DNA of 32,000 nucleotides from Paracoccus sp. N5 (GCF_000371965.1 NZ_AQUO01000001.1:1359331-1391330); one strand, 5' to 3'. Positions 11,406 through 31,589 are shown, counted from the stretch's first letter. Notes: a model not told the origin generated them from the letters alone. Made by a program: numbers and translations.

Positions 11406-11452
11406 GCTTGACGTTGTGTTCATTAAAGCATAACGAATGACGATCGGTTGAA

Positions 11453-11479: not shown

Positions 11480-11560
11480 CGGTGCTTGCGCTTGACAGCA
11501 CTACCATACCGCGCAATCCTGATCCCGTACCTATCTCTACGACAGGCAAAGGAGGGCGCG

Positions 11561-16310: not shown

Positions 16311-16347
16311 GGCCAGCCCGGCCGTCCCGGCCCGCGCAAGGGAAGCC

Positions 16348-18588: not shown

Positions 18589-20510
18589 TCGTCGGGACGG
18601 CCGGCCATATCGACCATGGCAAGACGGCGCTGGTCAAGGCGCTGACCGGCACCGACGCCGACCGCCTGGCCGAGGAAAAGGCCCGCGGCATCACCATCGA
18701 CCTGGGCTTCGCCTATGCCGACCTGGGTGCGGGCACAGTCACCGGCTTCGTGGATGTGCCGGGACACGAGAAATTCGTCCATACCATGCTGGCCGGCGCC
18801 GGCGGCATCGACCTGGCGCTGCTGGTCGTCGCCGCCGATGACGGCATCATGCCGCAAACCCGCGAGCATCTGGCCATCCTCGACCTGCTGGGCATCCGAC
18901 GCGGCATGGTCGCGCTGACCAAATCCGACCTGGCCGAGCCCGACCGGCTGGCCGCGCTGAGCGCCGAGATCGTCGAATTGCTGGCCCCGACCGGGCTTGA
19001 CGGCGCGCCGGTCTTCCCGGTCTCCGCGCTGACCGGCGCCGGCATCCCCGCCTTGCGCGAGGCCCTGGCCCGGGCCGAGGCCGAGACGGCCGCCCGCGCC
19101 ACCGGCGACCGCTTCCGCATGGCCATCGACCGCAGCTTCACCCTGGCCGGGGCCGGCACCGTCGTCACCGGCACCGTGCTCTCGGGCCGGGTGGCGACCG
19201 GGGACCAGGTGATGCTCAGCCCCTCGGGCCTGCCGGCGCGGGTGCGCGGCATCCATGCGCAGAACCGCAAGGCGGATCAGGGGCTTGCCGGCCAGCGCTG
19301 CGCCCTGAACCTTGCCGGCGAGGCGATCACGCGCGAGGCGATCCACCGCGGCGACCTGGCGCTGGACCCGGTGCTGCACGCGCCGACGCAGCGCATCGAC
19401 GCGACCCTGCGCGTGCTTGCCAGCGAGCCGAAGCCGCTGGCCAGCTGGTTTCCCGCCCGCCTGCACCTCGGCGCGGCCGAGACCGGCGCCCGCATCGTGC
19501 CGCTGCAAGGCCCGCTGGGTCCGGGCGAGACCGGGCTGGCGCAGATCGTGCTGGACCGCCCCGTCGCCGCAGCCTTCGGCGAGCGTTTCATCCTGCGCGA
19601 TACCTCGGCCCGGCGCACCATCGGCGGCGGCAGCCTGATCGACCTGCGCCCGCCCGCCCGCCACCGCTCGCGCCCCGAGCGGCTGGCGCAGCTCGCCGCC
19701 ATGGCCCTGCCCAACCCGGCCGAGGCCCTGGCCGCCATGGCGCGGCATGGCGCGGTGGACCTCGACGCCTTCGCCCGCGACCGCGCGCTGGCGCCGCCGG
19801 GTCTGGCCCAGGCCGTGGCCGCTTCGGGCGCCGCCGTGATCCCCGGCACCCGGCAGGCGCTGTCGCCCGACCTGCTCGACGCGCTGCGCCAAGGGGTCAC
19901 CGCCCAGCTCACCGCCTTCCACGCCGAGAATGCCGACCTGCAAGGCCTGGGCCGCGAGCGCCTGCGCCTGGCCGTGCATCCCCGCCTGTCGCGCCCCGAT
20001 TTCACCGCCCTTCTGCGCGCCGAGGCCGAGGCCGGCCGCATCGCGCTCGACGGCGCCTTCGTCCGCCTGTCCGGCCACCTGCCCCGGCTTTCGGACCAGG
20101 ACGAGGCGCTGCTGGCCCGGATCCTGCCGAGCCTGGACGGCGACGAACGGTTCCGCCCGCCCCGCGTCCGCGACTTCGCCACCGAAATCGGCGCCGACGA
20201 GGCCGAGATCCGCCGCATCCTGCGCATGGCCGCACGCCAGGGCCGCCTCGACCAGATCGCGCATGACCATTTCTTCGCCCGCGCCACCACGATCGAGATG
20301 GTCGCCATCATCCGCGATGTCGCGGCGCAGGCCCCGGACGGCTGGTTCACCGCCCCCGCCTTTCGCGACCGGGTCCAGAACGGCCGCAAGGTGGCGATCC
20401 AGATCCTGGATTTCTTCGACCGGCTGGGTCTGACCTTGCGCCGGGGCGATCTTCGTCGCATCAATCCGCATCGGATCGACCTGTTCCAGCCGGACGGGCC
20501 CGATATGTGA
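18585..20510 (+). CDS. selB: Selenocysteine-specific elongation factor SelB
   Basis: GTPase motifs [19 protein letters not shown] and TKSD, with a long C-terminal extension (641 aa). ATGA overlap with selA. Confidence 0.93.
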
Positions 20511-20516
20511 ACGCAG

Positions 20517-20559
20517 GGAAGAGAAGCGTCCCCGGTGGGGCGGCCGGACTTCAAATCCG
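20517..20559 (+). repeat. attL: displaced 5' fragment of tRNA-Sec (43 nt, non-functional)
   Basis: GGAAGAGAAGCGTCCCCGGTGGGGCGGCCGGACTTCAAATCCG is identical to 30093-30135. It begins 6 nt after the selB stop and ends inside the 3' strand of the anticodon stem. No variable arm, T-arm or acceptor 3' strand follows. Confidence 0.9.
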
Positions 20560-20738
20560 CCCGAAAAACCAGAAATTGCAGGCGTGGAAAGTTGCGGAAG
20601 CGGCTGGAACCTTTCCAGAACGCATCGTGAATGTTGCGACGGTCTGCCTTCTGATCGGCGGTCGCCTGACGGCCTCGGCCCATGGATCCCGAATGACTAT
20701 CGCGACCTGCGGGACCGCATCCTCGGGGAGGGTGCGGA

Positions 20739-21110
20739 ATGAGCCGAAAGGTTGCCACCCTCGTCTATGAACGCCGCGCCGGATCATCGGCCCGCAAGGC
20801 AGTCCTGGCCTATTTCGCCGACTGCGCCGACGACTACGGCCGCGGCATATGGGCGTCGAAGAAGACAATCGCCGATGAGACCGAGCTTGGTCGTTCGACC
20901 GTCATCCGCGTCGTCAACGAATTCGTCGCAGAGGGCATACTGATCGTGTCCGGCCACCGCCCTTGCCGCAACGGCGCGACGGTAAATTACGATATGAACC
21001 TCGACGCCATCCGAAACCTCCCCAGCATCAATGCTTCACCCGACCCGTCCCAGAGCGGGACCTCATGGGGTCCCAGAGCGGGACCCAAACCGTCCTTGAA
21101 CCGTCCTTGA
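20739..21110 (+). CDS. Winged-helix/HTH protein, phage replication-organizer-like
   Basis: 123 aa. The region ARKAVLAYFADCADDYGRGIWASKKTIADETELGRSTVIRVVNEFVAEGIL resembles the wHTH of phage/plasmid replication or DnaD-like proteins. SD GGGGAGGG precedes the ATG. The 3' end carries DNA repeats. Confidence 0.6.
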   Translation: MSRKVATLVYERRAGSSARKAVLAYFADCADDYGRGIWASKKTIADETELGRSTVIRVVNEFVAEGILIVSGHRPCRNGATVNYDMNLDAIRNLPSINASPDPSQSGTSWGPRAGPKPSLNRP

Positions 21111-21113
21111 ACC
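21047..21113 (+). repeat. Iteron-like repeats at the junction of the two replication-module ORFs
   Basis: GTCCCAGAGCGGGACC occurs twice (21047-21062 and 21070-21085), and each copy contains the hairpin GTCCC-AGAGC-GGGAC. A tandem ACCGTCCTTGA x2 plus ACC follows (21089-21113). Confidence 0.75.
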
Positions 21114-21616
21114 AAGATGATGATGACCGCGTGCGCGAGCCAGACCATTTTTGGGGAATGATCCTCGAGGCGATGGGGCTGGACCCGGCAGAGGCGACGG
21201 CGCTTGGCGGGCCGGCGGATATGGCTGAAGCACGGGGCTGGCTTAAGCTGCCGCATATCACCGAAGAGCTGGTTTGCGAGCAGATCCGCGTGGTCATAGC
21301 CCGGAAAGGCGACAGGCAAATTCACTGCCTGGCCTATTTCACCCCCGAGATGCAGCGCTTGAGCGCGAGCCTCGAGGCGAGCAAGGTTCCGCTGACGCCG
21401 GCGACGCGCAGGCAGCCGGGCAGAGGCGAGGCGGTTCCGATGGCCGCGAACTCGGGCAAGGTCGATCTGGACGGGTTGGCCGCGTTGTGGGCGCCGAAGG
21501 TGGCCGGCGGAGGATATGTCCCGTCCTCGGCCATCAGCCCGGCGTTGGCGCGGCACATGCTCGAAAAGGGTCTGGTTGCACCGGCCGATCTGCGGCGCGC
21601 CGGGGTGTCGACATGA
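21065..21616 (+). CDS. Hypothetical protein of the replication-like module (start uncertain; may once have been fused to 20739..21110)
   Basis: The open frame runs from 20963, with ATG candidates at 21065 and 21158. It overlaps the upstream ORF in the -1 frame. The C-terminal part has no family I can recognise. Confidence 0.45.
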   Translation: MGSQSGTQTVLEPSLNQDDDDRVREPDHFWGMILEAMGLDPAEATALGGPADMAEARGWLKLPHITEELVCEQIRVVIARKGDRQIHCLAYFTPEMQRLSASLEASKVPLTPATRRQPGRGEAVPMAANSGKVDLDGLAALWAPKVAGGGYVPSSAISPALARHMLEKGLVAPADLRRAGVST

Positions 21617-21804
21617 GCGCTGGCGCTGCCGGCCGCAGCGAAAAGCCCCCGACCTGCCCTGTGGCGGTCGGGTTTGCGGCGCTGGAGCTGGCGCGCGGCA
21701 GAGAGCAGACGCCGCCGATGGCCTTGCGCGGCACGTCCTGCATTGCAGGCTGGACGATCACGCCGCCGGGGCTGGGGGACGCCTGGCACCCCCCCTTTTC
21801 GTAG
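21613..21804 (+). CDS. Small hypothetical protein (63 aa)
   Basis: ATGA stop-start overlap with the preceding ORF, followed by a terminator. No recognisable motif. Confidence 0.35.
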   Translation: MSAGAAGRSEKPPTCPVAVGFAALELARGREQTPPMALRGTSCIAGWTITPPGLGDAWHPPFS

Positions 21805-21863
21805 GTTCTTCCGAGGCCCCCACGCCATGCGAGGGGCGTATCCCCGCAAATATTCGCATGTGC

Positions 21864-21888
21864 GTGCCCTTTCGGGCGGCACTTTTTT
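21864..21888 (+). terminator. Rho-independent terminator ending the replication-like module
   Basis: GTGCC (21864-21868) ... GGCAC (21878-21882), followed by TTTTTT (21883-21888). It sits in an unusually AT-rich spacer. Confidence 0.7.
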
Positions 21889-22087
21889 ATTACTTCCTGG
21901 GGTGCCGCCGTGGCCAATGTGGACCTGCTGCTTGACCGGGAATATCCTTTGATTTTTCATATGGCTGACCCGGCGTCGGTCGATGGCTGGATTGCCCGCA
22001 GACGACCCCCCCATGAAATCCCGCCAGAGGAACGGCACGGGATACCCCCGTAACGTCCGGTAAGCCACCACAAGGAAAGGCTTTGCC

Positions 22088-22291
22088 ATGCTGCCGCGCC
22101 TGAAAACCACCATCGAGATCGACGGCGAGACCGCGCAACGCGTCGAGGCAGAACGCGAGCGGATCGCGGCTGAAACCGGGCTGCCGAAGGTGTCGCTCGC
22201 TTCCGTTATCGCCGCCGTCCTGCGCCGGGGGCTGCCGGCCTCGCCCTGCGACGGGGCCAAGCCGCCCATGCAGCCGCGCCGCGCTCGCTGA
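22088..22291 (+). CDS. Small ribbon-helix-helix-like protein
   Basis: 67 aa. MLPRLKTTIEIDGETAQRVEAERERIAAETG has the beta-strand/helix pattern of CopG/Arc/MetJ proteins. SD AAGGAAAGG is present. Confidence 0.5.
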   Translation: MLPRLKTTIEIDGETAQRVEAERERIAAETGLPKVSLASVIAAVLRRGLPASPCDGAKPPMQPRRAR

Positions 22292-22312
22292 TTTTTCCAG
22301 CTAGGAACCGCC

Positions 22313-23491
22313 ATGAGTTTCAAGAACAATGCCCCCTTCGACCGCAGCCAGAGCCGCAATCGCAGCGTCGTCGGGCAATACCTGACCCGCAACCAGCAGC
22401 CCGCCGAAAGCGCGGCCATGCACCTGCTGCGCCTGGCGCATGAGGAAGCCAGCCGCGTCCAGTCGCTTGGCCCGTCAACGCCGGCGGCGGCCTCGGGGCA
22501 TGCCGGCCAGGTCGCGGATACCCCGGCTATGGAGCGGCTCACCGATGCCGTCGCGCAGGCGCGCCGCGCGCTGCCGTTTGCCGAGCATGCGCCGGGCGGC
22601 GACCTCGACCGCATCATGCGTATTCCGATGCCCGCAGCGCGCATGGTTCATCTGAATATCGGAACTGACCATCTGCCCGTCTTCGATGCCCCCGCGGGCA
22701 ACCAGCCCAGCGAGGCCATGACCCTGGCCGAAAGCCTGCTGACCCATGCCCGCACCTTCCAAGCCGGCGCGCGACTGCTGATCGAGCCCAAGGGCCGCGT
22801 CATCGAGACCGGCACCGGCGTGCCCGCGCTGCAGGTGGTGCCCATGGGCCTCGAGGTGGTGCGGGCCGCGCCCTTCGCGGTGGTGACGGACCCGGATGGC
22901 GACGATGATCCGGAAAACCCCGGCACGGCCCCGCTGATCCCGCTCGATACAATTCTGGCCGGCGCACGGATCGAAAGGCCCGACGATCTGAAAAACTATG
23001 CGATCCGGGTCTCGCTGACCCGGCGCGAACAGAAAGATCGCAACGACGGCGAGTTGCTGGCCGCTCTGCTGCATTCCATCACGCTGGGTCTGGCCCAGGC
23101 GGCCGATGCCGAGCTTCTGGGCGCGATCCTGGCGGCTGATCCGGGGACGTTCAGCCTGGGCGCTGCCGCGGCCAAGGGCGTGCGCTTTCACGAACTGCGC
23201 GCCATCGTCGGCACCGATGAGCCGGTGAGCGGGTCGGATTTCGGCCCGGGCTATGGCGACCAGCCCGGCCAGCTGTTCGTGCATTCGATCCCGGCCGAGC
23301 TGTGTGCCGCTGCCGCGCGGACGGTGATCGGCGCTTTCGATCGCTTTGGTCTGGCCATCGGCGGCGATATCCGGCTGCTGATCGATCGCACCGCCGTGGA
23401 TGGCAGCCTGACTGCCACCTGCTGGTGCGCGATGAAGGCTGTCCTGCCCGATCCGGGCTTTGCCTGGCGCTTTACTCCGGAGATGCCGTGA
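22313..23491 (+). CDS. Candidate HK97-fold major capsid-like protein (divergent)
   Basis: 392 aa. The segment IRVSLTRREQKDRNDGELLAALLHSITLGLAQAADAELLGAIL and the C-terminus ..LTATCWCAMKAVLPDPGFAWRF resemble the conserved central and C-terminal patterns of phage major capsid proteins. Small coupled ORFs and a gpZ-like gene follow, matching the lambda/HK97 head-to-tail gene order. This call rests on pattern recognition only. Confidence 0.45.
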   Translation: MSFKNNAPFDRSQSRNRSVVGQYLTRNQQPAESAAMHLLRLAHEEASRVQSLGPSTPAAASGHAGQVADTPAMERLTDAVAQARRALPFAEHAPGGDLDRIMRIPMPAARMVHLNIGTDHLPVFDAPAGNQPSEAMTLAESLLTHARTFQAGARLLIEPKGRVIETGTGVPALQVVPMGLEVVRAAPFAVVTDPDGDDDPENPGTAPLIPLDTILAGARIERPDDLKNYAIRVSLTRREQKDRNDGELLAALLHSITLGLAQAADAELLGAILAADPGTFSLGAAAAKGVRFHELRAIVGTDEPVSGSDFGPGYGDQPGQLFVHSIPAELCAAAARTVIGAFDRFGLAIGGDIRLLIDRTAVDGSLTATCWCAMKAVLPDPGFAWRFTPEMP

Positions 23492-23844
23492 TGGGCCTGC
23501 GGGACTGGTTCAGCCCCCGCGGCGCGCATCGGCCCGCACCCGCGGCGCCGGGGAACATGCTGCCGGCCGAGGTCGTGGCTGTGGTGCAGGCGGCAAGCAT
23601 CCGCAACGCCAACCGCCCGGATGCCGAGGGCAGCCCGATCATCCATGTGACGGCGCCGGCGCTGGGCCGGTTCCGCTGGGTCGATCTGGACAAGGCTGCC
23701 GACCGCATTTCGGATGCCTGGCCCGAGCTGACGCCCGCCCAGTGCTTCCGCGCCGCGCAGCTGATCGAGGCGGCGGTGGGCGACGCGGCCATTGCGAGCC
23801 TGCAGCGCGGGCAACCCCGGCGCAGCTGGGTCTGGGACTGGTGA
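23491..23844 (+). CDS. Hypothetical protein (117 aa), head-tail connector position
   Basis: TGATG stop-start overlap with the capsid-like gene. Its position is that of head completion/adaptor genes. Confidence 0.5.
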   Translation: MGLRDWFSPRGAHRPAPAAPGNMLPAEVVAVVQAASIRNANRPDAEGSPIIHVTAPALGRFRWVDLDKAADRISDAWPELTPAQCFRAAQLIEAAVGDAAIASLQRGQPRRSWVWDW

Positions 23845-24017
23845 TGGCGCGCAAGCCGCTGCCCGCGTCTCTGCGCCGCCTCGCCAAGCCCACGGCCGCG
23901 CTGGCGGTCGAGAATACACCCCCGCCCAAGGGCAAGAACCCCAGCGCCCGCCGGGTTCGGCGGCTGGCGCGCAAGGGCTGGCTGATCGGCTGGCCGTTTT
24001 CCAAAGGAGTGCTGTGA
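23844..24017 (+). CDS. Small basic hypothetical protein (57 aa)
   Basis: TGATG overlaps at both ends. Lys/Arg-rich. Confidence 0.45.
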   Translation: MARKPLPASLRRLAKPTAALAVENTPPPKGKNPSARRVRRLARKGWLIGWPFSKGVL

Positions 24018-24364
24018 TGGCGACACGCTATCAGCTGACGATCATCGGGGAAGCCGCCCAGGTTGCGCCTTCCATCATCGTGGACGGGCGCGCGTTGCAG
24101 GACGGCCAGAGGGTCGAGGTTGACCTTGCCACGGCCGTGGCCCTGGTCGAGCGCGGCCTTGCTATCCCGCGCGGCAGGATCGAGATCGAGCCGGTGCTGA
24201 AACCGAAACGCGGGCAGGCTGTCATGGTCGATGGCAGGGCCTGCTTTGACGGCGACACGGTCGAGGCCGGCTGGGCCGTCGCGCATGACCTGGTCGCGCG
24301 CGGCCGTGCCCGTCTGGCCGAGGGCGTCAGGCTGCCCCGCTTCAACCCGGATGCGCGCAAATGA
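24017..24364 (+). CDS. Hypothetical protein with two copies of a ~35-aa module
   Basis: Contains IIVDGRALQDGQRVEVDLATAVALVERGLA and VMVDGRACFDGDTVEAGWAVAHDLVARGRA. TGATG overlap upstream and ATGA overlap downstream. Confidence 0.55.
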   Translation: MATRYQLTIIGEAAQVAPSIIVDGRALQDGQRVEVDLATAVALVERGLAIPRGRIEIEPVLKPKRGQAVMVDGRACFDGDTVEAGWAVAHDLVARGRARLAEGVRLPRFNPDARK

Positions 24365-24576
24365 TGTTCGAAATCGAGATCATCGGCCAGCACCGGCCAG
24401 CCTCGCCCCTGCGCCCCGCACCGCGGGCAGGGATCATCCTGCATGGTCAGGCCCGCCTTGCCGGCGAGCGCATCAGCGTGGACTGGGCGACTGCGCGGCA
24501 CCTGATCGCCAACGGCCGCGCCAAGCCCGCGCCGGGCGTGACGATCCCGCTCTTGGACCCGGAGCGGCGCCAATGA
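24361..24576 (+). CDS. Hypothetical protein with a third copy of the same module
   Basis: IILHGQARLAGERISVDWATARHLIANGRA aligns with both repeats of the preceding ORF. ATGA overlaps on both sides. Confidence 0.55.
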   Translation: MMFEIEIIGQHRPASPLRPAPRAGIILHGQARLAGERISVDWATARHLIANGRAKPAPGVTIPLLDPERRQ

Positions 24577-25172
24577 GCCGATGGAGCCGCCGTATTCCCG
24601 GCCCGCAGGTTTCCATCGAGGTCGATCTCCGCCAGGTCAAGATGGTGATTGATGAGCTGAAAAGTACCAAGGAGGAGGTCGGCGCGTCCCTATCCAAAGC
24701 ACTGCGCCGCACCGCCAGCGCCTTGCGCGTCATGTCATCCAAGCGCCTGGTTCCCGAACTTCAGCTGCGCCGCGCAATGGACCTGCGCAAACGGCTGAAA
24801 ACCATGAAGGTACGGGCCAAGGGCAAGGACGCCGAACAGGTGATTGGCTTGTGGTTCGGGCTGTCCAGGATGCCGGTCTCGGCCTTCAAGGGCCGGCCCG
24901 TACAAACCGGCAAAGGCGTGAGCTTTCAAGGCAGAGAATATAAGGGCCGATTCCTGGCAACCATGCCAGGACAGACGCATGCCGGAATGTTCCGCCGCAA
25001 GGGTCGTGCGCGTTTGCCGATTGTCGGTCAGAACGTCGAGATCAAGGATGTGGTGGACCCGATCATCGAGGATGAAATCTTCCCGAAGGCCACGGAAATA
25101 TTCATCCGGAACTTCCTGCATGATCTGAAGTGGCGTGCCAGCCAGCGGAACAAGCCTTCAGCCGGGGAATAG
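24573..25172 (+). CDS. Phage minor tail protein Z-like / tail-completion protein
   Basis: 199 aa. The layout ..ALRRTASALRVMSSKRLVPELQLRRAMDLRKRLK.., ..MPVSAFKGRPVQTGKGVSF.., ..GMFRRKGRARLPIV.. parallels lambda gpZ as I recall it. It is the last gene of the virion-type operon. Confidence 0.5.
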   Translation: MSRWSRRIPGPQVSIEVDLRQVKMVIDELKSTKEEVGASLSKALRRTASALRVMSSKRLVPELQLRRAMDLRKRLKTMKVRAKGKDAEQVIGLWFGLSRMPVSAFKGRPVQTGKGVSFQGREYKGRFLATMPGQTHAGMFRRKGRARLPIVGQNVEIKDVVDPIIEDEIFPKATEIFIRNFLHDLKWRASQRNKPSAGE

Positions 25173-25182
25173 CATCGGGATA

Positions 25183-25212
25183 CCCGGCGCGCTGTTCATG
25201 GGGCGCGCCGGG
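25183..25212 (+). terminator. GC-rich hairpin, probable terminator of the virion-type operon
   Basis: 10-bp perfect stem CCCGGCGCGC (25183-25192) / GCGCGCCGGG (25203-25212) with a 10-nt loop. It starts 11 nt after the TAG stop. No U-tract. Confidence 0.5.
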
Positions 25213-25492
25213 CAGACGGGGCGGGATGCGCCTGGCTTTTATCCATGGGCCGAAGCAACCGGGCAAGTCGGCGAGTGCCCCATAACCCCGACATGGCGCG
25301 GCCGTGGCCTTGTCGGCGCGGCGCCACAGCCCCGGTGCAGCACATGCTGGCCGGGGCTTTCTCTTTGCGCCAGCGGCGTGCCATGGCACACCTGCCATTG
25401 GCGGACGTGCGCGCCGGGTTGTTCAACCTGCAATGCAGGATGTTGCATCTCTACCACACTCCCCATTGGGGGACGTCATCAATGTGAGGGCG

Positions 25493-25512
25493 TCAGACCC
25501 CGGCCAGCTTGC
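25493..25512. repeat. 20-bp direct repeat of the brnA 3' end
   Basis: TCAGACCCCGGCCAGCTTGC is identical to 25628-25647, which covers the stop codon and last 6 codons of brnA on the minus strand. Confidence 0.8.
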
Positions 25513-25627
25513 CAGAGGTGTTCCACCGGCGGTGGACGACATCCGCGCCGGGCAGAGCGCGAACGTCCTTCATCCTCGCTTTGAGGGCGGATCATTGCGA
25601 CAACCCCCATGGGGCTCGCCAGGCGGA

Positions 25628-25870
25628 TCAGACCCCGGCCAGCTTGCGCAGGGCGTCGTCTATGCGGCTTTGCCAGCCCGGGCCGCCGGCCTTGAAATAG
25701 GCGATCACCTCGGGGCTAAGCCGGATGGTGGTGCTGACCTTGGCGTTTTCCAGCTTCGGCCGGCCGCGCTGGACCGTGGCCTTGGCGGCGCGCTTTTCCC
25801 AATAGGGCGTCGCCAGGTCGGGCGCGTCGTCGTCAAAATCGGGGGGCATAGGCTTTCTGTTCGCGGTCAT
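25628..25870 (-). CDS. brnA: BrnA-family antitoxin
   Basis: 80 aa. ..RGRPKLENAKVSTTIRLSPEVIAYFKAGGPGWQSRIDDALRK.. matches the BrnA (COG3514) signature. It overlaps the brnT 3' end. Confidence 0.8.
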   Translation of the reverse strand: MTANRKPMPPDFDDDAPDLATPYWEKRAAKATVQRGRPKLENAKVSTTIRLSPEVIAYFKAGGPGWQSRIDDALRKLAGV

Positions 25871-26105
25871 TGGCCTTCCTCATGCTGATGACGTGGGCGG
25901 TGTCGCTGCGCGGCGTCCAGACCATCACCACCATGCGGCCGCGCAGGAAGCCGATGCTGATGAGGCGGGTTTCGCCATAGTCGAAGCGATCATCCTCGAA
26001 CGTCAGTGTCGCGCCAGCCAGAACCTCGGCGCCGTCCGCTTCAAGATCGATCCCCCGCTCTGCAAGGGTCTTGGCGCGCTTCGCCGGGTCGCTGGTGCAT
26101 TTCAT
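25833..26105 (-). CDS. brnT: BrnT-family (DUF497) ribonuclease toxin
   Basis: 90 aa. DPAKRAKTLAERGIDL...DDRFDYGETRLISIGFLRGRMVVMVWTPRSDTAHVISMRKANDRE matches the BrnT pattern, including ISMRKA..E. Confidence 0.8.
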   Translation of the reverse strand: MKCTSDPAKRAKTLAERGIDLEADGAEVLAGATLTFEDDRFDYGETRLISIGFLRGRMVVMVWTPRSDTAHVISMRKANDREQKAYAPRF

Positions 26106-26153
26106 GTAGTAACAATAATTATGAGGGGCGCGGGCGTCAATATCTGTAGTAAC
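26105..26153. promoter_or_regulatory. Candidate brnTA operator: two TGTAGTAAC boxes 40 bp apart
   Basis: TGTAGTAAC at 26105-26113 (abutting the brnT start codon) and at 26145-26153, within an AT-rich 60-bp spacer. Confidence 0.4.
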
Positions 26154-26165
26154 GGAAAGTCGTGG

Positions 26166-26540
26166 TCAGGGCTTGAGGCGACGCTTGCGGCGTCTGCGCG
26201 GCAACAGAAGCTGCGGGAGGGCATGATAGCAACCCAGCCGCAAGCTTATAATCAGCGGAGGCGTCCATCCCGGTATCCAGGGTTCGGTCTCTTTGGCGGT
26301 GATCACTCCGTGCATCACATGCTCCACCTTGTTCACCGCTCCGCCGCGAACAATGAAGGCGACCCTTGCCCCCTCGACCACGCCCCACAACGCCAGCACA
26401 TCGGGACAGTAGTGGGTCAATAGCAGGGATATTTCCATGCTCTCTTGTTCCGCGTCTAGGTGCGCGGGCGGGGTGAAATCTATGATATGCCCGGCATAGC
26501 CCTTGTCAGCGACAGATAGGAACATGGTCGACAAAGGCAT
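26166..26540 (-). CDS. Hypothetical protein (124 aa), unknown function, lower-GC cargo gene
   Basis: The ORF lies 6 nt downstream of the Arc-like gene on the same strand. It has a basic C-terminal tail RRRRKRRLKP. I recognise no family. Confidence 0.45.
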   Translation of the reverse strand: MPLSTMFLSVADKGYAGHIIDFTPPAHLDAEQESMEISLLLTHYCPDVLALWGVVEGARVAFIVRGGAVNKVEHVMHGVITAKETEPWIPGWTPPLIISLRLGCYHALPQLLLPRRRRKRRLKP

Positions 26541-26546
26541 TGGCGG

Positions 26547-26945
26547 TCAGGGCTTCAGGCGCTGGGCGAGCTTGTCTGCCAGCAGGTTGGCAAAGCTCTC
26601 AATGTCATCTGCAGCCCGCAGCTTTCTCAATACCTGTCCGATCGGCATTTTCCCGACATCTGGCACCCCCTTCAGGGCATCGCCGATGCCCTCACTCTGC
26701 CGATCCAAGGCTGCTACAGGCTCCCCGCTTTCTTCATGCTTTGCCAACATATCGCCGACCGTGTTGGGGCGATCTTCGTCATGCCAATCGTAATACTTCT
26801 GGAGCGCCATCAGAATTTCTGAATGAAGGCTGCGCCCATGCAGATCAGCCTCCTCCTGAATAAACTCCTTCAAGGCCGGCGGGATGCGCAAGCCATAGGG
26901 TGCCAGGCGGGTGGGGTATTTTCGAGAGTCAGCCATAGCGGCCAT
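26547..26945 (-). CDS. Arc/MetJ-type ribbon-helix-helix regulator with a ~80-aa C-terminal extension
   Basis: YGLRIPPALKEFIQEEADLHGRSLHSEILMALQKYY is an Arc-family RHH motif. The start is uncertain (ATG 26945, 26936 or 26978). Confidence 0.65.
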   Translation of the reverse strand: MAAMADSRKYPTRLAPYGLRIPPALKEFIQEEADLHGRSLHSEILMALQKYYDWHDEDRPNTVGDMLAKHEESGEPVAALDRQSEGIGDALKGVPDVGKMPIGQVLRKLRAADDIESFANLLADKLAQRLKP

Positions 26946-27006
26946 TGGTAACCAATTTTTCCTTGACTGAAAATACATACCAATGGTAACTAACTACCAA
27001 TGGTAG
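26942..27006. promoter_or_regulatory. Divergent promoter/operator region with three CCAWTGGTA boxes
   Basis: CCATTGGTAA at 26942-26951, CCAATGGTAA at 26980-26989, and CCAATGGTAG at 26997-27006. The AT-rich spacer contains TTGACT (26963-26968). The region lies between two divergently oriented Arc-family genes. Confidence 0.55.
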
Positions 27007-27024
27007 TTGATGGAGAGCACCCAG

Positions 27025-27183
27025 ATGGAAAAATATGAGCAGATCTCGCTGCGCCTACCCGACGGTTGGCGCCGTGCGCTGAAGATCGCCGCCGCCGTGA
27101 ACGGCCGCAGCATGAACGCCGAGATCGTGCAGCGTCTGCGCCCGACCCTCGAAGCCGCCGATGCCCAGCGCCCGCAATCCTGA
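27025..27183 (+). CDS. Arc-family ribbon-helix-helix repressor (not in the supplied ORF track)
   Basis: My own translation gives MEKYEQISLRLPDGWRRALKIAAAVNGRSMNAEIVQRLRPTLEAADAQRPQS*. The motif LRLP....L...A...GRSMNAEIV..L is the Arc-domain signature. SD GGAGAG precedes ATG 27025 (alternative ATG 27010). Confidence 0.7.
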   Translation: MEKYEQISLRLPDGWRRALKIAAAVNGRSMNAEIVQRLRPTLEAADAQRPQS

Positions 27184-27253
27184 AATGAAAGCGGCCGGGC
27201 AGCGTTGCACCGCTGACACCGGCCTTGATGCCCCCGAGAAAGGACATTTCCCC

Positions 27254-27478
27254 ATGAATATCCCTGAAAATCCCTGCAAAGGCAACCTGCCGGTTTCGCC
27301 AGCGCCCCGCCGCCGGCCCGGCCAGCCCAAGCGCAAGGCCACCGAAAAGCGCGTCAGCCGCGCCGCCAGCCTGATCCAGGACCATATCGCTGTGCTGACT
27401 GCCCAGCGCATCACGCTGCCCGTCCTCGGTCTCGAGGTCGCGCTGGATGAGCTGCGCCAAATCGGGGGTGCGCAATGA
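27254..27478 (+). CDS. Small hypothetical protein (74 aa), ends ..RQIGGAQ
   Basis: SD AAAGGA upstream. The 3' end is junction cassette copy 1. The N-terminus MNIPENP parallels MNIQPNEP of ORF 31092..31313. Confidence 0.5.
   Translation: MNIPENPCKGNLPVSPAPRRRPGQPKRKATEKRVSRAASLIQDHIAVLTAQRITLPVLGLEVALDELRQIGGAQ
27461..27478 (+). repeat. Stop-start junction cassette copy 1 (ATCGGGGGTGCGCAATGA)
   Basis: 18-mer shared with 27808-27825 (identical), 28397-28414 and 28600-28617 (2 to 3 differences each), and with 31092-31109 on the minus strand. Confidence 0.85.
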
Positions 27479-27825
27479 ACCGCCGCGATCTGATCGCCCT
27501 GCCGGCCGCTGTCGCCTTCGCACCTGCGCCGGCGCTGGGCGCTGCAATCGCCCCGGTTTCCCTGCGGGCGCTGTGGCAGCATGCGAAAGCGCTGAATGAC
27601 CGCCTCGAGGCGACCGAGCGCGCCGAGGATCCGGTCGCCTGGGATGCCGGCATGGCGCAGCTCATCCATCTTCAGGACCGGATCGCCGCGGCACCGGCCT
27701 GCACGCCCGAGGCTTGGGCGATAAAGGTCTTGAGCGCCGACGATGGCGGCGCCATCGAGAATGCCAGCGATCTGGGCCGCGCCCTGGTCGAACAGGCGCG
27801 CAGCATGATCGGGGGTGCGCAATGA
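27475..27825 (+). CDS. Hypothetical protein with twin-arginine-like N-terminus (116 aa), ends ..SMIGGAQ
   Basis: MNRRDLIALPAAVAFAPAPALGAA is similar to MNRRALLKALPAAVVAGAAPAAA of ORF 30321..30674. ATGA overlaps at both ends. Confidence 0.55.
   Translation: MNRRDLIALPAAVAFAPAPALGAAIAPVSLRALWQHAKALNDRLEATERAEDPVAWDAGMAQLIHLQDRIAAAPACTPEAWAIKVLSADDGGAIENASDLGRALVEQARSMIGGAQ
27808..27825 (+). repeat. Stop-start junction cassette copy 2 (ATCGGGGGTGCGCAATGA)
   Basis: Identical to copy 1. Confidence 0.85.
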
Positions 27826-28202
27826 GCCGCCGTCCCACCGTGGCGCGTTTCTCGCTTTCCGCGTCCGCGCGCCAGCACATCGACGCCATCATGGCTACGG
27901 CACGCGACCAGATAGAAGCCGTTCTGCAACGAGAGGTGTCCCGCCTGATCGCAGATGCGCATGACGGCGCTAACCAAAAGGCTGCGCACCACCGCCCGGC
28001 GAAGCAGGAGGTTATGGCAACGCCCGCAGTCCCGCAGCCGATCTATATCCGCCCGGGCAAGGCGCAGCAGATGTTCGGCGTGCATCGCGCAACGCTATAC
28101 CGCTGGGCGAATGCCGGCCACATCACCATTCACAAGCGCGGCGCAGCGACCTTTGTCCGGCTGGACGAGGTGCGCGCCTTCATCGAAGGAAACCAGCCAT
28201 GA
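27822..28202 (+). CDS. Excisionase/AlpA-type HTH DNA-binding protein
   Basis: The C-terminal IYIRPGKAQQMFGVHRATLYRWANAGHITIHKRGAATFVRLDEVRAFIEG matches the MerR-like HTH_17/AlpA/Xis pattern. It lies upstream of int in the same operon. Confidence 0.65.
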   Translation: MSRRPTVARFSLSASARQHIDAIMATARDQIEAVLQREVSRLIADAHDGANQKAAHHRPAKQEVMATPAVPQPIYIRPGKAQQMFGVHRATLYRWANAGHITIHKRGAATFVRLDEVRAFIEGNQP

Positions 28203-28414
28203 TGACGCGCGACCTGCAACGCGCCGCGAACGACCAGACGGAGGCCGACGCCCAGGCTGAAGAGATCCTGCGCCGCGTCTATGCGCTGACCGCCCCTTAC
28301 CAGCGCCGCGTGGTCGAATGGCTGCGCGGGCATTCCGACCCCGACATGCGCGACCTCGCCACGCCGCTCGAGGAGGTGCTCACCCTTCGCCGACTGATCG
28401 GGGGTGAACAATGA
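28199..28414 (+). CDS. Small hypothetical protein (71 aa), ends ..RLIGGEQ
   Basis: ATGA overlaps on both sides. SD AAGGA upstream. Confidence 0.5.
   Translation: MMTRDLQRAANDQTEADAQAEEILRRVYALTAPYQRRVVEWLRGHSDPDMRDLATPLEEVLTLRRLIGGEQ
28397..28414 (+). repeat. Stop-start junction cassette copy 3 (ATCGGGGGTGAACAATGA)
   Basis: 16 of 18 identical to copy 1. Confidence 0.8.
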
Positions 28415-28617
28415 GCATTACCCGCATCATTCAGGTGGATACGCAAGGCAAGCCGCTTGACGGGCCAGACCTGATCTTCACGAACAAGTGGGCTGTCAAA
28501 GCCGGATTAATGGAAAATCGGCCGGTCGTTGTTCGGGCATTTGAAGCGCGAATCACGAAAAAGGGCTTGGCCGAAATCGCCCGTCAGATGGGCCGGCAGA
28601 TCGGGGGTGAACCATGA
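28411..28617 (+). CDS. Small hypothetical protein (68 aa), ends ..RQIGGEP
   Basis: ATGA overlaps on both sides. Locally lower GC. Confidence 0.5.
   Translation: MSITRIIQVDTQGKPLDGPDLIFTNKWAVKAGLMENRPVVVRAFEARITKKGLAEIARQMGRQIGGEP
28600..28617 (+). repeat. Stop-start junction cassette copy 4 (ATCGGGGGTGAACCATGA)
   Basis: 15 of 18 identical to copy 1. Confidence 0.8.
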
Positions 28618-28835
28618 CCCGGCTTGTCCATCCCTCCTCGCCGCTCCGGCACCAGACGCTGATCTTCGCCGGCTATGCTGCCCTTCTCTTGGCCTTCGGC
28701 GCCGCGGCGCTGGGCGCCCTGTTGGCCCCGCAGTTCGACTGGGCGGGCCTCTGGGGCGATCTGTCCGACTTTGCCGCCTCCACGGCCGCCCAGGCGCGCG
28801 CCGAGGGCTGGGCCGCGCTTTCCGAGAGGGCGTGA
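28614..28835 (+). CDS. Small membrane protein (73 aa, one TM helix)
   Basis: Hydrophobic stretch LIFAGYAALLLAFGAAALGALLA. ATGA overlap upstream. Confidence 0.5.
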   Translation: MTRLVHPSSPLRHQTLIFAGYAALLLAFGAAALGALLAPQFDWAGLWGDLSDFAASTAAQARAEGWAALSERA

Positions 28836-28838
28836 GCC

Positions 28839-29012
28839 ATGGGTGTCCGTACCAAGTTCAGCCAAGCCGACCTAGAGAAGGTGCTTCGCACGACCAGAGA
28901 GGCCGGCCTGCCGGTGACCGTAGTCAGGATAGGGCCGCAGGGGGAAATCGAAGTGCGCTGCGGCCCGCAGGAACCCGCAGACGAATTCGACGCGACGGAT
29001 ATGCGCCGATGA
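28839..29012 (+). CDS. Small hypothetical protein (57 aa; not in the ORF track)
   Basis: My own translation gives MGVRTKFSQADLEKVLRTTREAGLPVTVVRIGPQGEIEVRCGPQEPADEFDATDMRR*. SD GAGAGGG upstream, and an ATGA overlap with the int start. Confidence 0.5.
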   Translation: MGVRTKFSQADLEKVLRTTREAGLPVTVVRIGPQGEIEVRCGPQEPADEFDATDMRR

Positions 29013-30016
29013 CCAAGAAGGAACTGCCGAAACACGTCTATCGCAAGAAGGGCGGCAAGGTCTATTTTCAGCGCCGCGGCTTCAAGACGGTCCGTTTCAT
29101 CAGCGAACCGGGCACTTCGGAGTTCGCTGCGGAATATGCCCTGATCCTGCGCGGCCGCGCGCCGGTGCCCGAAGGGCGAACCCTGAAGGCATTGGCGATC
29201 AGTTACCAGCTCAGCGACCGCTTCACGGGCTTGGCGCCTAGAACGCGGCAGGATTATCTGCGCGTGCTGGACTATGTGAAGGAGAAGCTGGGCCACCTGC
29301 CGGCCGACAGAATGCAGCGCAAGGACGTGATCCGGGCACAGCAGGCCAACAAGGACGCGGTGCGCTTCGCCAACTACATCGTCCAGGTGCTTCGCGTCAT
29401 GTTCGAGCATGGGATCGATCAGGGCTGGCGTGACGACAATCCAGCCAAAGGCGTTCGCCTGCTGAAAAGCGGTCGGCCGCCCCGCTTGCCATGGCCGCCC
29501 GAGAAAATCACGGCGTTCCGTGAGGCTGCGCCCCTTGGGACCCGCGGCAGGTTGATCTTCGAGCTTCTGCTGGGCACCGGCCAGCGCATTGGTGATGTGC
29601 TCAAGATGCGGTGGAACGACCTCGAGGAAGGCGGGGTGAATGTCCGACAGGGCAAGACAGGAGCGGAGTTGTGGATACCGCTGACCAGCGGCTTGCGCGA
29701 GGCGCTGGGCGCGACGCCAAAGGCCGGACTGACCATCTGCGCGCAGCTGAACGGCAGCCCGACCAGCTACGACGGTGCGCATGCCATGATCATGGCCATT
29801 CGAAAGGAAATCGGCGCCGAGGCCTTCGACATTCACGCCTTGCGCCACACCGCGGCGCATGAGCTGGCTGCGGCCGGCTGCTCGGGCGAACTGATCCAGG
29901 CGATCACGGGGCATACGAACCTGGGGATGGTGAAGCACTATACTGGTTCCGCTAGCCAGAAGCCCCGTGCTAAGGAGGCGCAGTCGCGCCGCGAACAGAA
30001 CAGGTGCGAAACGTGA
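29009..30016 (+). CDS. int: Tyrosine recombinase / phage-type integrase
   Basis: 335 aa with catalytic signature LLLGTGQRIGD (Arg I), HALRHTAAH (H-x-x-R), ITGHTN and VKHY (Tyr). Start at ATG 29009, not at 28529 as in the track. It ends 76 nt before tRNA-Sec. Confidence 0.9.
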   Translation: MTKKELPKHVYRKKGGKVYFQRRGFKTVRFISEPGTSEFAAEYALILRGRAPVPEGRTLKALAISYQLSDRFTGLAPRTRQDYLRVLDYVKEKLGHLPADRMQRKDVIRAQQANKDAVRFANYIVQVLRVMFEHGIDQGWRDDNPAKGVRLLKSGRPPRLPWPPEKITAFREAAPLGTRGRLIFELLLGTGQRIGDVLKMRWNDLEEGGVNVRQGKTGAELWIPLTSGLREALGATPKAGLTICAQLNGSPTSYDGAHAMIMAIRKEIGAEAFDIHALRHTAAHELAAAGCSGELIQAITGHTNLGMVKHYTGSASQKPRAKEAQSRREQNRCET

Positions 30017-30092
30017 AAGTTGAGAAGCTGTTGCGAACGGCCCAAATCGGGGGCACGGATGCAGCGAACAAACCATTGGAAACGATGGTGAT

Positions 30093-30135
30093 GGAAGAGA
30101 AGCGTCCCCGGTGGGGCGGCCGGACTTCAAATCCG
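30093..30135 (+). repeat. attR core: 43-bp repeat forming the 5' part of the intact tRNA-Sec
   Basis: Identical to 20517-20559. The flanking bases differ on both sides (20516 G vs 30092 T; 20560 C vs 30136 G). Confidence 0.9.
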
Positions 30136-30188
30136 GTTGGGGCAGTCAGCCTGTCCCGGGTGGGTTCGACTCCCACTCTCTTCCGCCA
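30093..30188 (+). tRNA. selC: tRNA-Sec (anticodon UCA)
   Basis: 96 nt with an 8-bp acceptor stem GGAAGAGA/TCTCTTCC, discriminator G and encoded CCA. The anticodon stem is CCGGA/TCCGG with loop CTTCAAA (TCA at 30127-30129). It has a long variable arm and a T-arm GTGGG-TTCGACT-CCCAC, and overall closely parallels E. coli selC. Confidence 0.93.
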
Positions 30189-30291
30189 AAATGCCCATTT
30201 AACTGGTTGTTATTGCTAAATTATATCCTGGCATCACAGCGGCGTCCCGCCAATGCATCCCCCACGCGGAATTGGCCAGAATGACGGATTT

Positions 30292-30313
30292 GCCCCCGGC
30301 CGAAGCCAGGGGC
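30292..30313 (-). terminator. Stable hairpin with UUCG tetraloop downstream of ORF 30321..30674
   Basis: The minus strand reads GCCCCUGGC-UUCG-GCCGGGGGC, a 9-bp stem including one U-G pair. It begins 8 nt after the stop codon. No U-tract. Confidence 0.45.
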
Positions 30314-30320
30314 GTTGGTA

Positions 30321-30674
30321 TCAAGCAACGAGCGCTCGGGCCTCGGCCCAGAAAGCATGATCGTCATTCGGCAATTCAAATGTCCCGTAGCTCGTCCACG
30401 CCAGCGCCTTGGCGATCATGTCGCGCGCATCCTCTGCGGGCGCTTCCATAATCCGATTGCTCAACTCATTCTGAGCGAACAGGTCGGCGTTAAACTGGCT
30501 CTCGGGCATCGTGCGGCCTTCTTCGCCGTTCAGTCGGGTTTCCTCGGCAACCCACTGTCGAAACATCCGCATGACCGGCGTCTCAGCCAGGTCGACCACG
30601 CACAGCGCAGCAGCCGGCGCCGCACCCGCGACAACCGCCGCAGGCAGGGCTTTCAGAAGGGCACGGCGGTTCAT
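30321..30674 (-). CDS. Hypothetical protein with twin-arginine-like N-terminus (117 aa); paralog-like to 27475..27825
   Basis: Reads MNRRALLKALPAAVVAGAAPAAA.... SD AAGGAGG upstream and an ATGA overlap with the upstream ORF. Confidence 0.55.
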   Translation of the reverse strand: MNRRALLKALPAAVVAGAAPAAALCVVDLAETPVMRMFRQWVAEETRLNGEEGRTMPESQFNADLFAQNELSNRIMEAPAEDARDMIAKALAWTSYGTFELPNDDHAFWAEARALVA

Positions 30675-30895
30675 TGTCCGGCCTCCTTGCGCTGGATCTG
30701 ATACTCGGCCTCAAGCAGCTCCTGCGCCTTCTTGACGCGATCCGCGACCACTTGGATCAGGTTGATGATGCCCGAGGCGATGGGCGCGTCGTCTTGCGTC
30801 AGGTGGTCGAGGGCCACTTCATCAAGGACGCACAGCAGCGCCCCGATGGTATGAAGCTCGGCTTCGGTTTCGCTATGCGCTTTGAAATAGCTCAT
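30671..30895 (-). CDS. Small hypothetical protein (74 aa)
   Basis: ATGA overlaps at both ends. SD GGAGGG upstream. Confidence 0.5.
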   Translation of the reverse strand: MSYFKAHSETEAELHTIGALLCVLDEVALDHLTQDDAPIASGIINLIQVVADRVKKAQELLEAEYQIQRKEAGQ

Positions 30896-31095
30896 GCCTC
30901 GCCCTCCTTCGGCAGGTTGATGCTGTCGAGATTGTTGTTCACCTCAAGCGCCATTTCCTTGGCGAGTTGCACCAGGGTCGGCTGAGCGTTCGGGACCACG
31001 CCATCGAGCGCGCAGGCTTCCAGAAGTTCCAGCAGATCGCACAGCCGCCCCATGATGGTCTGCTGGTCTTGGATATGTCGGGTAAGCGCGCTCAT
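30892..31095 (-). CDS. Small hypothetical protein (67 aa)
   Basis: ATGA overlaps at both ends. The junction cassette GATCGGGGGTGCGGCATGA precedes it on the minus strand. Confidence 0.5.
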   Translation of the reverse strand: MSALTRHIQDQQTIMGRLCDLLELLEACALDGVVPNAQPTLVQLAKEMALEVNNNLDSINLPKEGEA

Positions 31096-31109
31096 GCCGC
31101 ACCCCCGAT
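31092..31109 (-). repeat. Stop-start junction cassette, fifth copy, inverted relative to the island copies
   Basis: The minus strand reads ATCGGGGGTGCGGCATGA, 16 of 18 identical to 27461-27478. The upstream protein ends ..SLIGGAA. Confidence 0.8.
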
Positions 31110-31313
31110 CAGGCTGACGGTGTAGCGCTTCGCGGCGCGAAGGTAGCGGCGCAGTTCCTTTTCCCGCTGGGTGTAATCACCGCTGTCCTTGTGGCTCACG
31201 TCGAGCGCCAGCGACAGGCTGTCGTCCAATTCGTAGAGGTCCGCGAGCGACATGCTGGGGGCCGGGACGGCGGGCGCCCCAACCATACGCGGTTCATTCG
31301 GTTGGATGTTCAT
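31092..31313 (-). CDS. Small hypothetical protein, ends ..SLIGGAA (start ATG 31313; alternative GTG 31325)
   Basis: The N-terminus MNIQPNEP parallels MNIPENP of ORF 27254..27478. The C-terminus is encoded by the junction cassette. Confidence 0.5.
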   Translation of the reverse strand: MNIQPNEPRMVGAPAVPAPSMSLADLYELDDSLSLALDVSHKDSGDYTQREKELRRYLRAAKRYTVSLIGGAA

Positions 31314-31346
31314 TTCAGTTCTCACAGTTCTGGCTTTCCACAGCCG

Positions 31347-31589
31347 TCACTGGTTGCGGACCAGCGGCCGGGGGTTGGAAACCTGCTGTGAGACAGGTCG
31401 GACGACTTTAAGGTTTCCCTCTGGACATAGCATCCGCCCCCGGCCTATAAAGGTCGGGACGCAGATGCCCGCCAAGGCATCCGTCATTTCGACCGCGAGC
31501 TTCCGCGCCAACGGATGCTCAACCTGCCAAGGTATGCGGTCTATCACAGTCAGGGTTTCCACACCCACTGACCACGCTACACCCGACAT
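31347..31589 (-). CDS. Hypothetical protein (80 aa), weakly supported
   Basis: Same strand, 21 nt upstream of the next ORF. No clear SD and no motif. Confidence 0.3.
   Translation of the reverse strand: MSGVAWSVGVETLTVIDRIPWQVEHPLARKLAVEMTDALAGICVPTFIGRGRMLCPEGNLKVVRPVSQQVSNPRPLVRNQ

Follow-up and report, generated by a model that had tools for sequence, protein, structure and literature searches.

The 32,000-nt stretch of Paracoccus sp. N5 DNA analysed here (GCF_000371965.1, NZ_AQUO01000001.1:1359331-1391330), which is referred to as the window and whose positions are used as coordinates throughout, carries a 9.6-kb integrative element in selC, the gene for the selenocysteine tRNA (tRNA-Sec). 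The element is read as one that targets its tRNA gene with reversed polarity and, by gene content, as a satellite that resembles the phage-inducible chromosomal islands (PICIs) and carries a capsid homologue of its own.

The element is bounded by a perfect direct repeat of 43 bp (20517-20559 and 30093-30135; 43 of 43 positions identical at an offset of 9576; repeat family D7). Direct sequence comparison confirmed that the identity breaks off on either flank of both copies, as had been claimed in the initial annotation of this DNA, which was made from the sequence alone. The chance expectation of a perfect 43-mer repeat in 32 kb is ~1e-17 by our own arithmetic, and an 18-mer from the core, with up to 3 mismatches allowed, has only 2 sites in the window vs 0.03 expected by chance. 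The repeat corresponds to nt 1-43 of tRNA-Sec. As proposed earlier, the right copy is the 5' part of a complete tRNA-Sec gene and forms the attR core; this gene, tRNA-SeC(tca) at 30093-30188 on the + strand, is the only tRNA gene found by ARAGORN in the window, and Rfam RF01852 scores it at 81.5 bits vs a gathering score of 47. The left copy (20517-20559, + strand), the attL core, is the displaced 5' stub that the initial annotation had described: ARAGORN calls no tRNA there, and it starts 6 nt after the selB stop, since selB spans 18585-20510 (+ strand, Pfam). Directly before selB lies selA (17257-18588, + strand, Pfam), and further upstream on the same strand are fdhE, fdhC, fdhB, and the gene for the formate dehydrogenase alpha subunit (11465-14644), which has an in-frame TGA and a selenocysteine insertion sequence (Rfam SECIS_3, 12155-12213, 79.7 bits). 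The genes fdhABC-fdhE-selA-selB-selC form a single + strand cluster. The selenocysteine machinery and its client are therefore found together, and the element separates the tRNA from its own client operon.

An empty site, predicted as selB followed by an uninterrupted selC, was found in a Logan contig (L001, SRR31189230, 2,576 bp) retrieved via an exact-protein look-up of a small open reading frame (ORF) right of selC. In this contig, window positions 19954-20559 run straight on into 30136-32000, none of the 2,471 nt being mismatched, and the order is the selB C-terminus, TGA, acgcag, a complete tRNA-Sec, and then the right flank of the window. The exact integrase protein of the element is recorded only in SRR4046670 and not in the empty-site sample SRR31189230. 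In SRR4046670, the element interior is a contig of its own (9,593 bp) that ends 30 nt into the core at either side, and the left flank is a separate contig that likewise ends inside the core, which is the pattern that a short-read graph should give at an occupied site. The locus has the features of an Islander-type tRNA-gene island, i.e., an intact tDNA with an upstream 5' fragment in the same orientation, a tyrosine integrase gene between the two, and a precise empty site (in the short-read assembly L001). The 9.6-kb extent is thus borne out by the empty site, by the recurrence described below, and by the integrase gene that adjoins the core, and it is virtually certain that the segment is an integrative element.

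The initial annotation had also raised the alternative of a larger element that carries its own selC and ends past the right edge of the window, in which case the 43-bp repeat would be merely an internal feature. This would fit the DNA right of selC, which is lower in G+C (about 0.60-0.62 vs 0.72-0.78 in selAB), contains small phage-style coupled ORFs, and belongs to a side of selC that is variable among Paracoccus, with a P4-type island there in P. yeei. However, selB, selC, and the identical right flank are contiguous without the 9.6 kb in L001, so that the right flank remains with selC; no other 3' tRNA-Sec fragment was found anywhere in the window, including the 1.8 kb right of selC (contigs from exact-protein look-ups reach at most 105 nt past the window, to 32105); and the integrase gene ends 76 nt from the core, as in all relatives. 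A larger element of this kind is considered highly improbable.

The right flank itself was inspected as well. Small translationally coupled ORFs lie in the lower-G+C DNA right of selC (30321-31589, - strand), and P. yeei-like contigs (L006/L007) have homologues of the 117-aa ORF among them and of the region 31347-31589 to the right of their selC, where a tRNA-Arg(CCG) follows. The 117-aa ORF and a 116-aa ORF of the element are alike in length and in an RR-containing N-terminus, and the flank was considered as an inverted relative of the element; this was rejected, the two ORFs being only 26% identical (E = 14). The DNA motif that the flank and the element have in common is a Shine-Dalgarno sequence plus an overlapping stop/start junction. 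Megablast of the element against plasmids matched only tRNA-Sec, and one such plasmid copy was rejected as an empty site because it is located behind putA.

Recurrence as a discrete unit at the same site, a point raised with the initial annotation, was found in other Paracoccus. The closest integrases, with 82-91% identity, are from this genus, and P. yeei CP020442.2 (L005) and P. simplex (L009/L010) both have selB followed by a 5' tRNA-Sec stub and a small element with an integrase gene whose stop lies 76 nt before a complete tRNA-Sec. The repeat and the unit measure 44 bp and 6,945 bp in P. yeei and 43 bp and 9,144 bp in P. simplex. Both repeats end at the same tRNA nucleotide as the window repeat, and a variant at position 10 of the P. 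yeei tRNA-Sec is present in both of its repeat copies. Because these two genomes and two additional attL junctions in other contigs share the arrangement, the unit is regarded as a discrete, recurring, site-specific element. In P. yeei (L005, 11085-16352), selC is occupied at either side: the 6.9-kb relative lies on the 5' side, and on the 3' side a P4-type integrase (487 aa, Arm-DNA-bind_3), AlpA, and a RepB_primase/VapE-like gene start 113 nt past the selC 3' end. No 3' selC fragment was found in the 10 kb examined of this P. yeei locus.

The genes of the element were called on the element-interior contig and shifted to window coordinates. The tyrosine integrase (335 aa; 29009-30016, + strand; PF00589 1.9e-26, phrog_1 3.6e-41) has residues R193, K216, H276, R279, H302, and Y311, which are invariant in 21 homologues; its gene stops at 30016 and the core begins at 30093, in agreement with the distance of 76 nt given in the initial annotation. 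GTTGCGR-type repeats on both sides of the core are candidate arm-type integrase sites. In the P arm, GTTGCGG (20591-20597) and GTTGCGA (20633-20639; both + strand) are found, and the TTGC of the first and the TTGCGA of the second are invariant in five attL ends with diverged surroundings. The P' arm (30017-30092, + strand) has GTTGAGA (30019-30025) and GTTGCGA (30030-30036), which do not vary between the window and the elements of P. yeei and P. simplex. An inverted repeat with 5-bp arms (ACCAT...ATGGT, 30072-30089) closely precedes the tRNA 5' end in the window and in P. simplex; P. yeei has CGTCA...TGACG at the same place (L005, about 11066-11079), so that the position is kept and the sequence differs. 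This might be a protein-binding or processing site. It is proposed that the arm-binding integrase recombines at the anticodon stem-loop of selC, with a crossover presumably in the loop. As attP holds a copy of tRNA-Sec nt 1-43 adjoining the integrase gene, a full hybrid tRNA-Sec would be rebuilt at attR, with nt 1-43 given by the element and the 3' rest by the host, and the host 5' part would be left as a dead stub behind selB.

The reversed polarity becomes apparent from the relatives of this integrase, which is a member of a large family in Rhodobacterales. In a survey of 80 species-representative loci that encode integrase relatives (44-85% identity), a convergent tRNA-Cys(GCA) is found within about 640 nt downstream of int in 45 loci; the selC element of P. 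simplex is also among the 80. In 23 loci (22 of the 45 plus L087, whose contig end cuts the tRNA), the element, mostly about 5-6 kb in size, is bounded by a direct repeat of the tRNA-Cys 3' 44 nt, which spans the 3' end to the last anticodon-loop base. These tRNA-Cys(GCA) elements and prophages of Rhodobacterales resemble the selC elements in a homologous integrase (45-60% identity), in the order of int stop, two short direct repeats, spacer, and ~44 bp of tRNA identity, with the rebuilt tRNA beside int, and in a core that has CGGA-N7-TCCG where the tRNA identity block ends. The direct repeats after the int stop are GTTTAGAC twice in many tRNA-Cys elements and GTTGAGA/GTTGCGA in the window. 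In contrast, the tRNA converges on int and its 3' 44 nt are duplicated in the tRNA-Cys elements, whereas here the tRNA is co-directional and its 5' 43 nt are duplicated; save for a 57-aa ORF in two loci, only int is common to the two kinds. The attP geometry is the same in both, and therefore the selC lineage keeps this geometry with the tRNA turned round, so that the int-proximal block is the 5' part of the tRNA. A neighbour-joining tree of the integrases, calculated without bootstrap, nests the selC clade among tRNA-Cys users, which is suggestive of a polarity flip within one tRNA-Cys-using integrase family. The similar near-palindromic anticodon stem-loops of tRNA-Cys and tRNA-Sec would provide a plausible route for such a switch. 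A further locus (L088, 1-1309) has an integrase relative with 47% identity and a co-directional tRNA-Cys at 91 nt, on a contig that ends 175 nt upstream of int; it is a possible second case of reversed polarity in the same integrase family.

The Xis/AlpA-like gene that had been assigned to the integrase operon was recovered as an HTH_17 excisionase-like gene (27822-28202, + strand; HTH_17 4.6e-9, phrog_66 excisionase 8.7e-10) in the same + strand gene string. It is part of a translationally coupled early operon (27254-29012, + strand) that encodes, in order, proteins of 74 and 116 aa, the excisionase, and proteins of 71, 68, 73, and 57 aa, and that is followed by the integrase gene. The gene-junction motif ATCGGGGGTGCGCAATGA (repeat families D2 and D5) is found at 27452-27480, 27799-27827, 28388-28416, 28600-28624, and 20716-20744, and inverted at 31090-31116 in the right flank. 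It consists of a Shine-Dalgarno-like GGGGGTG and an overlapping stop/start, and several of the proteins thus end in ...IGGAQ or ...IGGEQ. A divergent regulatory switch (26547-27183, both strands) is composed of an Arc-like repressor gene (26547-26945, - strand), a gene for an Arc/ribbon-helix-helix protein (27025-27183, + strand), and palindromes; the two proteins match Pfam Arc with E-values of 9e-5 and 7.9e-10 as a pair. The palindrome TACCAATGGTA is present between the Arc genes at 26978-26988 and 26995-27005 (2 copies vs 0.04 expected), and an imperfect third copy is found at 26941-26951. These palindromes are putative operators of the Arc-type switch.

A 392-aa protein (22313-23491, + strand) is, judged by its predicted structure, an HK97-fold major-capsid-protein homologue. 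It gave no match in Pfam, PHROG, NCBIfam, or PDB sequences, and because the sequence searches gave nothing it was identified by fold alone. The AlphaFold2 model, built on 17 homologues, has a predicted local distance difference test score (pLDDT) of 72.6 and a predicted template-modelling score (pTM) of 0.66, with a helical N-terminal extension of ~90 aa. In Foldseek searches of PDB and BFVD, all top matches of the model were HK97-fold capsids (prob 1.00, TM-scores 0.2-0.55), including those of roseophage R4C, the Rhodobacter gene transfer agent, HK97, the capsid-forming PICI (cf-PICI) EcCI2 (9gyi), and the SaPIbov5 Ccm procapsid (7rwz). The family is small, with only 283 representatives among 1.84 billion proteins in an exhaustive profile search. 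Six of the seven long (~500-aa) members tested have an N-terminal Peptidase_S78 prohead protease domain, a fusion that is seen in true capsid genes. In all four context look-ups, the capsid homologues were located in small integrase-bearing elements with differing integrases and replication modules, namely in P. simplex, in L091/L092 (AAA_25 protein; integrase 37% identical), and in L093/L094, where a P4-type integrase is accompanied by AlpA and a VapE-like primase. Part of one of these contigs (L091, ERZ25038564 NODE_61, 5884-20064) looks like a tandem array of capsid-gene-bearing mini-elements. One of them has the same capsid-117-114-71-gpZ-BrnTA module with the 37%-identical integrase; beyond it lie, in order, a partial integrase gene, genes of the types Phage_capsid_4, Phage_cement_2, and Arc, and a further integrase gene.

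Downstream of the capsid homologue, four small genes (23491-24576, + strand; 117, 57, 115, and 71 aa) lead to a gene for a lambda gpZ-like tail-completion protein. Two of the small proteins, those of 115 and 71 aa, are paralogous to each other (BLASTP 4e-10), and the four-gene block accompanies the capsid homologue in L009 and L091; by their position, these genes possibly encode head-tail joining proteins. The gpZ-like protein (199 aa; 24573-25172, + strand) matches phrog_27 (tail completion/Neck1) with 8.3e-28, its homologues bear PF06763 Minor_tail_Z (lambda minor tail protein Z), and it is 54% identical to the product of the gene after gpFII in a complete Paracoccus prophage (L180). This prophage has a Nu1-like small terminase (TerS), a gpA large terminase (TerL), a lambda-type portal, and an S78-capsid fusion, followed by P2-type baseplate, sheath, and tube genes. 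The order of the module from capsid to gpZ in the element is as in phages.

At the left end, a replication initiator with an HTH_36 N-terminus, lambda-O/DnaD-like, is encoded (20739-21616, + strand; Pfam HTH_36 1.7e-8, PHROG replication initiation/O-like 8e-14). A tandem duplication of 11 bp at 21090-21111 (CCGTCCTTGAA twice) shifts the frame of this gene and leaves it in two parts, 20739-21110 and 21065-21616. Removal of one CCGTCCTTGAA copy restores a protein of ~302 aa that resembles the P. simplex initiator, and intact versions of 302-329 aa are found in P. simplex and P. yeei. The duplicated sequence is also present in an independent Logan contig (L004). Just upstream of the duplication, within the initiator gene, the palindromic 16-mer GTCCCAGAGCGGGACC occurs twice, at 21047 and 21069, a pair that is reminiscent of an origin inside an initiator gene. 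Two tiny ORFs lie between the initiator and the 392-aa gene. On the - strand, a BrnT toxin (25833-26105) and a BrnA antitoxin (25628-25870) are encoded, with Pfam E-values of 1.1e-18 and 4.3e-19 for the pair, as well as a truncated tail-tube homologue of 119 aa (26166-26525), whose counterpart in the L180 prophage is the N-terminal portion of the Phage_tube gene product (42% identity). The Pfam Phage_tube match of the 119-aa protein is weak (0.024), and the relatives in P. yeei, P. simplex, and L091 lack this homologue.

The initial annotation had not recognised the gene content as that of any described island family. It is readable: the integrase and excisionase, the repressor switch, the initiator, the toxin-antitoxin pair, and the capsid-to-tail-joining module combined give the pattern of a phage satellite, and the element is probably such a satellite of a PICI-like kind. 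There is no ORF large enough for a portal or TerL, the largest unassigned ORFs being at most 183 aa, and no portal, terminase, protease, lysis, sheath, baseplate, or tape-measure match was obtained for the element ORFs in Pfam, PHROG, and NCBIfam. The explanation as a whole, i.e., an excision-competent selC element that is also a PICI-like, helper-dependent satellite, is held with fairly good confidence. Several points weigh against it. The empty-site contig is a short-read assembly, presumably from a de Bruijn graph with k of about 31, in which the 43-bp repeat is a branch point, so from the contig alone a mis-join is possible. Excision through attP and packaging are predicted from genes and sites. 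A degenerate pattern of the attL/attP side gave nothing in the viral contigs of IMG/VR and only 2 further integrated copies in metagenome contigs, and megablast of the element against GenBank phages gave no match. The window copy may be replication-defective because its initiator is frameshifted. Neither a terS family in any element ORF nor a cos/pac site was found, no helper prophage is visible in the window, and the model of the gpZ-like protein had no significant fold match in PDB.

Two other origins of the gene content were weighed. A full-size temperate phage at selC may have lost most of its structural, lysis, and packaging genes, leaving the capsid, gpZ, and tube genes behind. Such decay could account for phage-type genes that include a truncated tube homologue and a frameshifted initiator, and IMG/VR has predicted prophages of 30-60 kb with the same integrase family at their ends; the att sites, however, are both perfect, the empty site is precise, the independent members are all small (5,128-10,600 bp) with a common gene order, and the capsid family is small and distinct, is located in small int-bearing elements with varied integrases and replication modules wherever its context was fetched, and does not resemble the candidate helper's capsid gene in sequence. 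A decayed prophage is therefore considered unlikely. Even less is to be expected of a plasmid-like or mobilisable integrative element, replicating through its initiator once excised and moving by conjugation, vesicles, or natural transformation, in which the phage genes would be cargo for interference with phages. The lone tail-completion and truncated tube proteins could indeed interfere with tail assembly, and the initiator with iteron-like repeats, the toxin-antitoxin pair, and the failure to find terS or a pac site would suit such an element. Yet the searches of the element ORFs (Pfam, PHROG, NCBIfam) gave no family of relaxases, oriT-associated proteins, or coupling proteins, the unassigned ORFs gave no PADLOC defence match, and the order from capsid to gpZ matches the head-to-tail joining region of phages, which makes this origin quite improbable.

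For the preferred reading as an excisable, PICI-like satellite, the following course is proposed. The Arc-type divergent switch would control the early operon from excisionase to integrase, and excision would release a unit of 9,576 bp, composed of 9,533 bp of unique DNA and one 43-bp core copy. The predicted attP junction (30092, core, 20560) reads ...GAAACGATGGTGAT, the 43-mer, and CCCGAAAAACCAG..., and the predicted restored attB reads ...GATATGTGAACGCAG, the 43-mer, and GTTGGGGCAG.... In the excised circle, the early operon would run across attP into the initiator and the morphogenesis module. Portal, terminase, prohead protease, tail, and lysis functions would be supplied by a helper, for which Paracoccus CP102352.1 provides the likely model: a lambda-type head combined with a contractile tail of the P2 type. 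Dependence on a helper, packaging, and a role in redirecting capsid size may be envisaged from the gene content.

Insertion may also affect the host. With the site empty, only 6 nt separate selC from selB, and the two are probably transcribed together; in the occupied site, selC is found 76 nt downstream of int. Scanning for sigma-70 consensus promoters gave nothing in this 76-nt spacer or at the left end of the element. Because no sigma-70-type promoter was found in the spacer, selC expression may depend on read-through from the early operon or on an unrecognised promoter, and selAB transcription would run into the initiator and capsid genes of the element after insertion; such effects on selC expression are predicted from gene order and promoter scan. 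A more far-reaching proposal is that the element represents an undescribed alphaproteobacterial satellite type, which brings only its own HK97-fold capsid and head-to-tail joining proteins (a gpZ-like one among them) and obtains portal, protease, terminase, and tail from a helper, and that selenoprotein synthesis is tied to the state of the element via selC. This combination is viewed as unlikely. If true, selC would be uncoupled from fdh-selAB and placed downstream of the xis-int operon, and the synthesis of formate dehydrogenase, a selenoprotein, would become dependent on the element state.

Occupied and empty sites together make this locus a clean natural case in which an integrase lineage apparently reversed its tRNA target polarity. 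It bears on how integrases change targets at near-palindromic anticodon stem-loops and on their usual preference for tRNA 3' halves, as insertion into the 5' part displaces the tRNA upstream region. A physiological read-out of this displacement is available, because selC lies 6 nt behind selB in a cluster with a Sec-containing formate dehydrogenase and its selenocysteine insertion sequence. The data also point to a family of capsid-gene-bearing mini-elements in Paracoccus, a group in which phage satellites have hardly been described, with a capsid-protein family outside Pfam and PHROGs. Both the flip of polarity inside a single integrase family and the link with the selenocysteine operon are considered worth an experiment.

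The use of selC as an attachment gene, which the initial annotation had compared with enterobacterial islands, is common to both, and the comparison is otherwise only loose because those islands use the selC 3' end. LEE, SHI-2, PAI-I536, and the retronphage phiR73 have P4-type integrases and are inserted at the selC 3' end with int downstream of selC. P. yeei has an island of this P4 type too (int, AlpA, primase), located 3' of its selC. Elements that integrate into the 5' half of a tRNA gene are on record but rare: the 5'-distal part is called a "considerably less frequent" target than the 3' part where PMC6563490 cites Zhao and Williams 2002, the Islander filters permit a 5' fragment upstream of an intact tRNA (PMC4383910), and upstream D-loop integration was reported at Klebsiella arg2 (bioRxiv 10.1101/2020.11.02.365908). 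The element shares with such integrators the reversed target polarity and the 5' fragment displaced upstream of an intact tRNA, and differs in its target, selC, and in the use of the anticodon stem-loop instead of the D-loop of Klebsiella arg2. In the anticodon-loop sublocation class of Williams 2002, to the extent that it is summarised in bioRxiv 10.1101/2020.11.02.365908, the element fits by the limit of the att identity (4 nt beyond the loop here, and the very end of the loop in the 23 tRNA-Cys relatives) and departs from the class in an identity block that runs from the loop to the 5' end (nt 1-43).

Among satellites, a P4-like type is not indicated, as a P4-type integrase, an alpha primase-helicase, and Psu/Delta/Sid were all unmatched, nor is a complete prophage, with 9.6 kb and no terminase, portal, or lysis modules, as compared with the complete prophage in L180. 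Marine VEIMEs (virion-encapsidated integrative mobile elements) have no capsid genes (PMC9618062), whereas this element has one. The cf-PICIs likewise have their own capsid gene followed by head-tail joining genes (bioRxiv 10.1101/2022.09.08.507074; PMC10085698), and they are defined by 11 core components including portal, TerL, protease, and TerS (PMC10085698), none of which was found beside the capsid gene here. With PICIs, the element shares an integrase, a switch, and a replication module in an island under about 20 kb, as well as a capsid morphogenesis gene, the HK97-fold homologue, to which a redirecting role may be ascribed. Tail and lysis genes are forbidden components for PICIs in SatelliteFinder (PMC10085698); the element has the gpZ-like gene and the truncated tube homologue, and no lysis genes were found. 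It also differs from PICIs in an O/DnaD-like initiator instead of a primase-helicase (Pri-Rep), in Arc-type regulators (plus HTH_17) instead of the Stl/AlpA type, and in the extra gpZ-like tail-completion gene. By this comparison, the closest parallel appears to be a PICI with a capsid homologue, e.g., SaPIbov5 with Ccm, which takes pentamer positions and thereby forces the formation of small capsids (PMC8569155). The 392-aa protein has no sequence relation to Ccm; both elements are small integrase islands that combine a repressor switch and a replication module with an HK97-fold capsid homologue. Portal, terminase, and tail genes are lacking in such PICIs (PMC8569155), and in the element none were found other than the gpZ-like gene and the truncated tube homologue.

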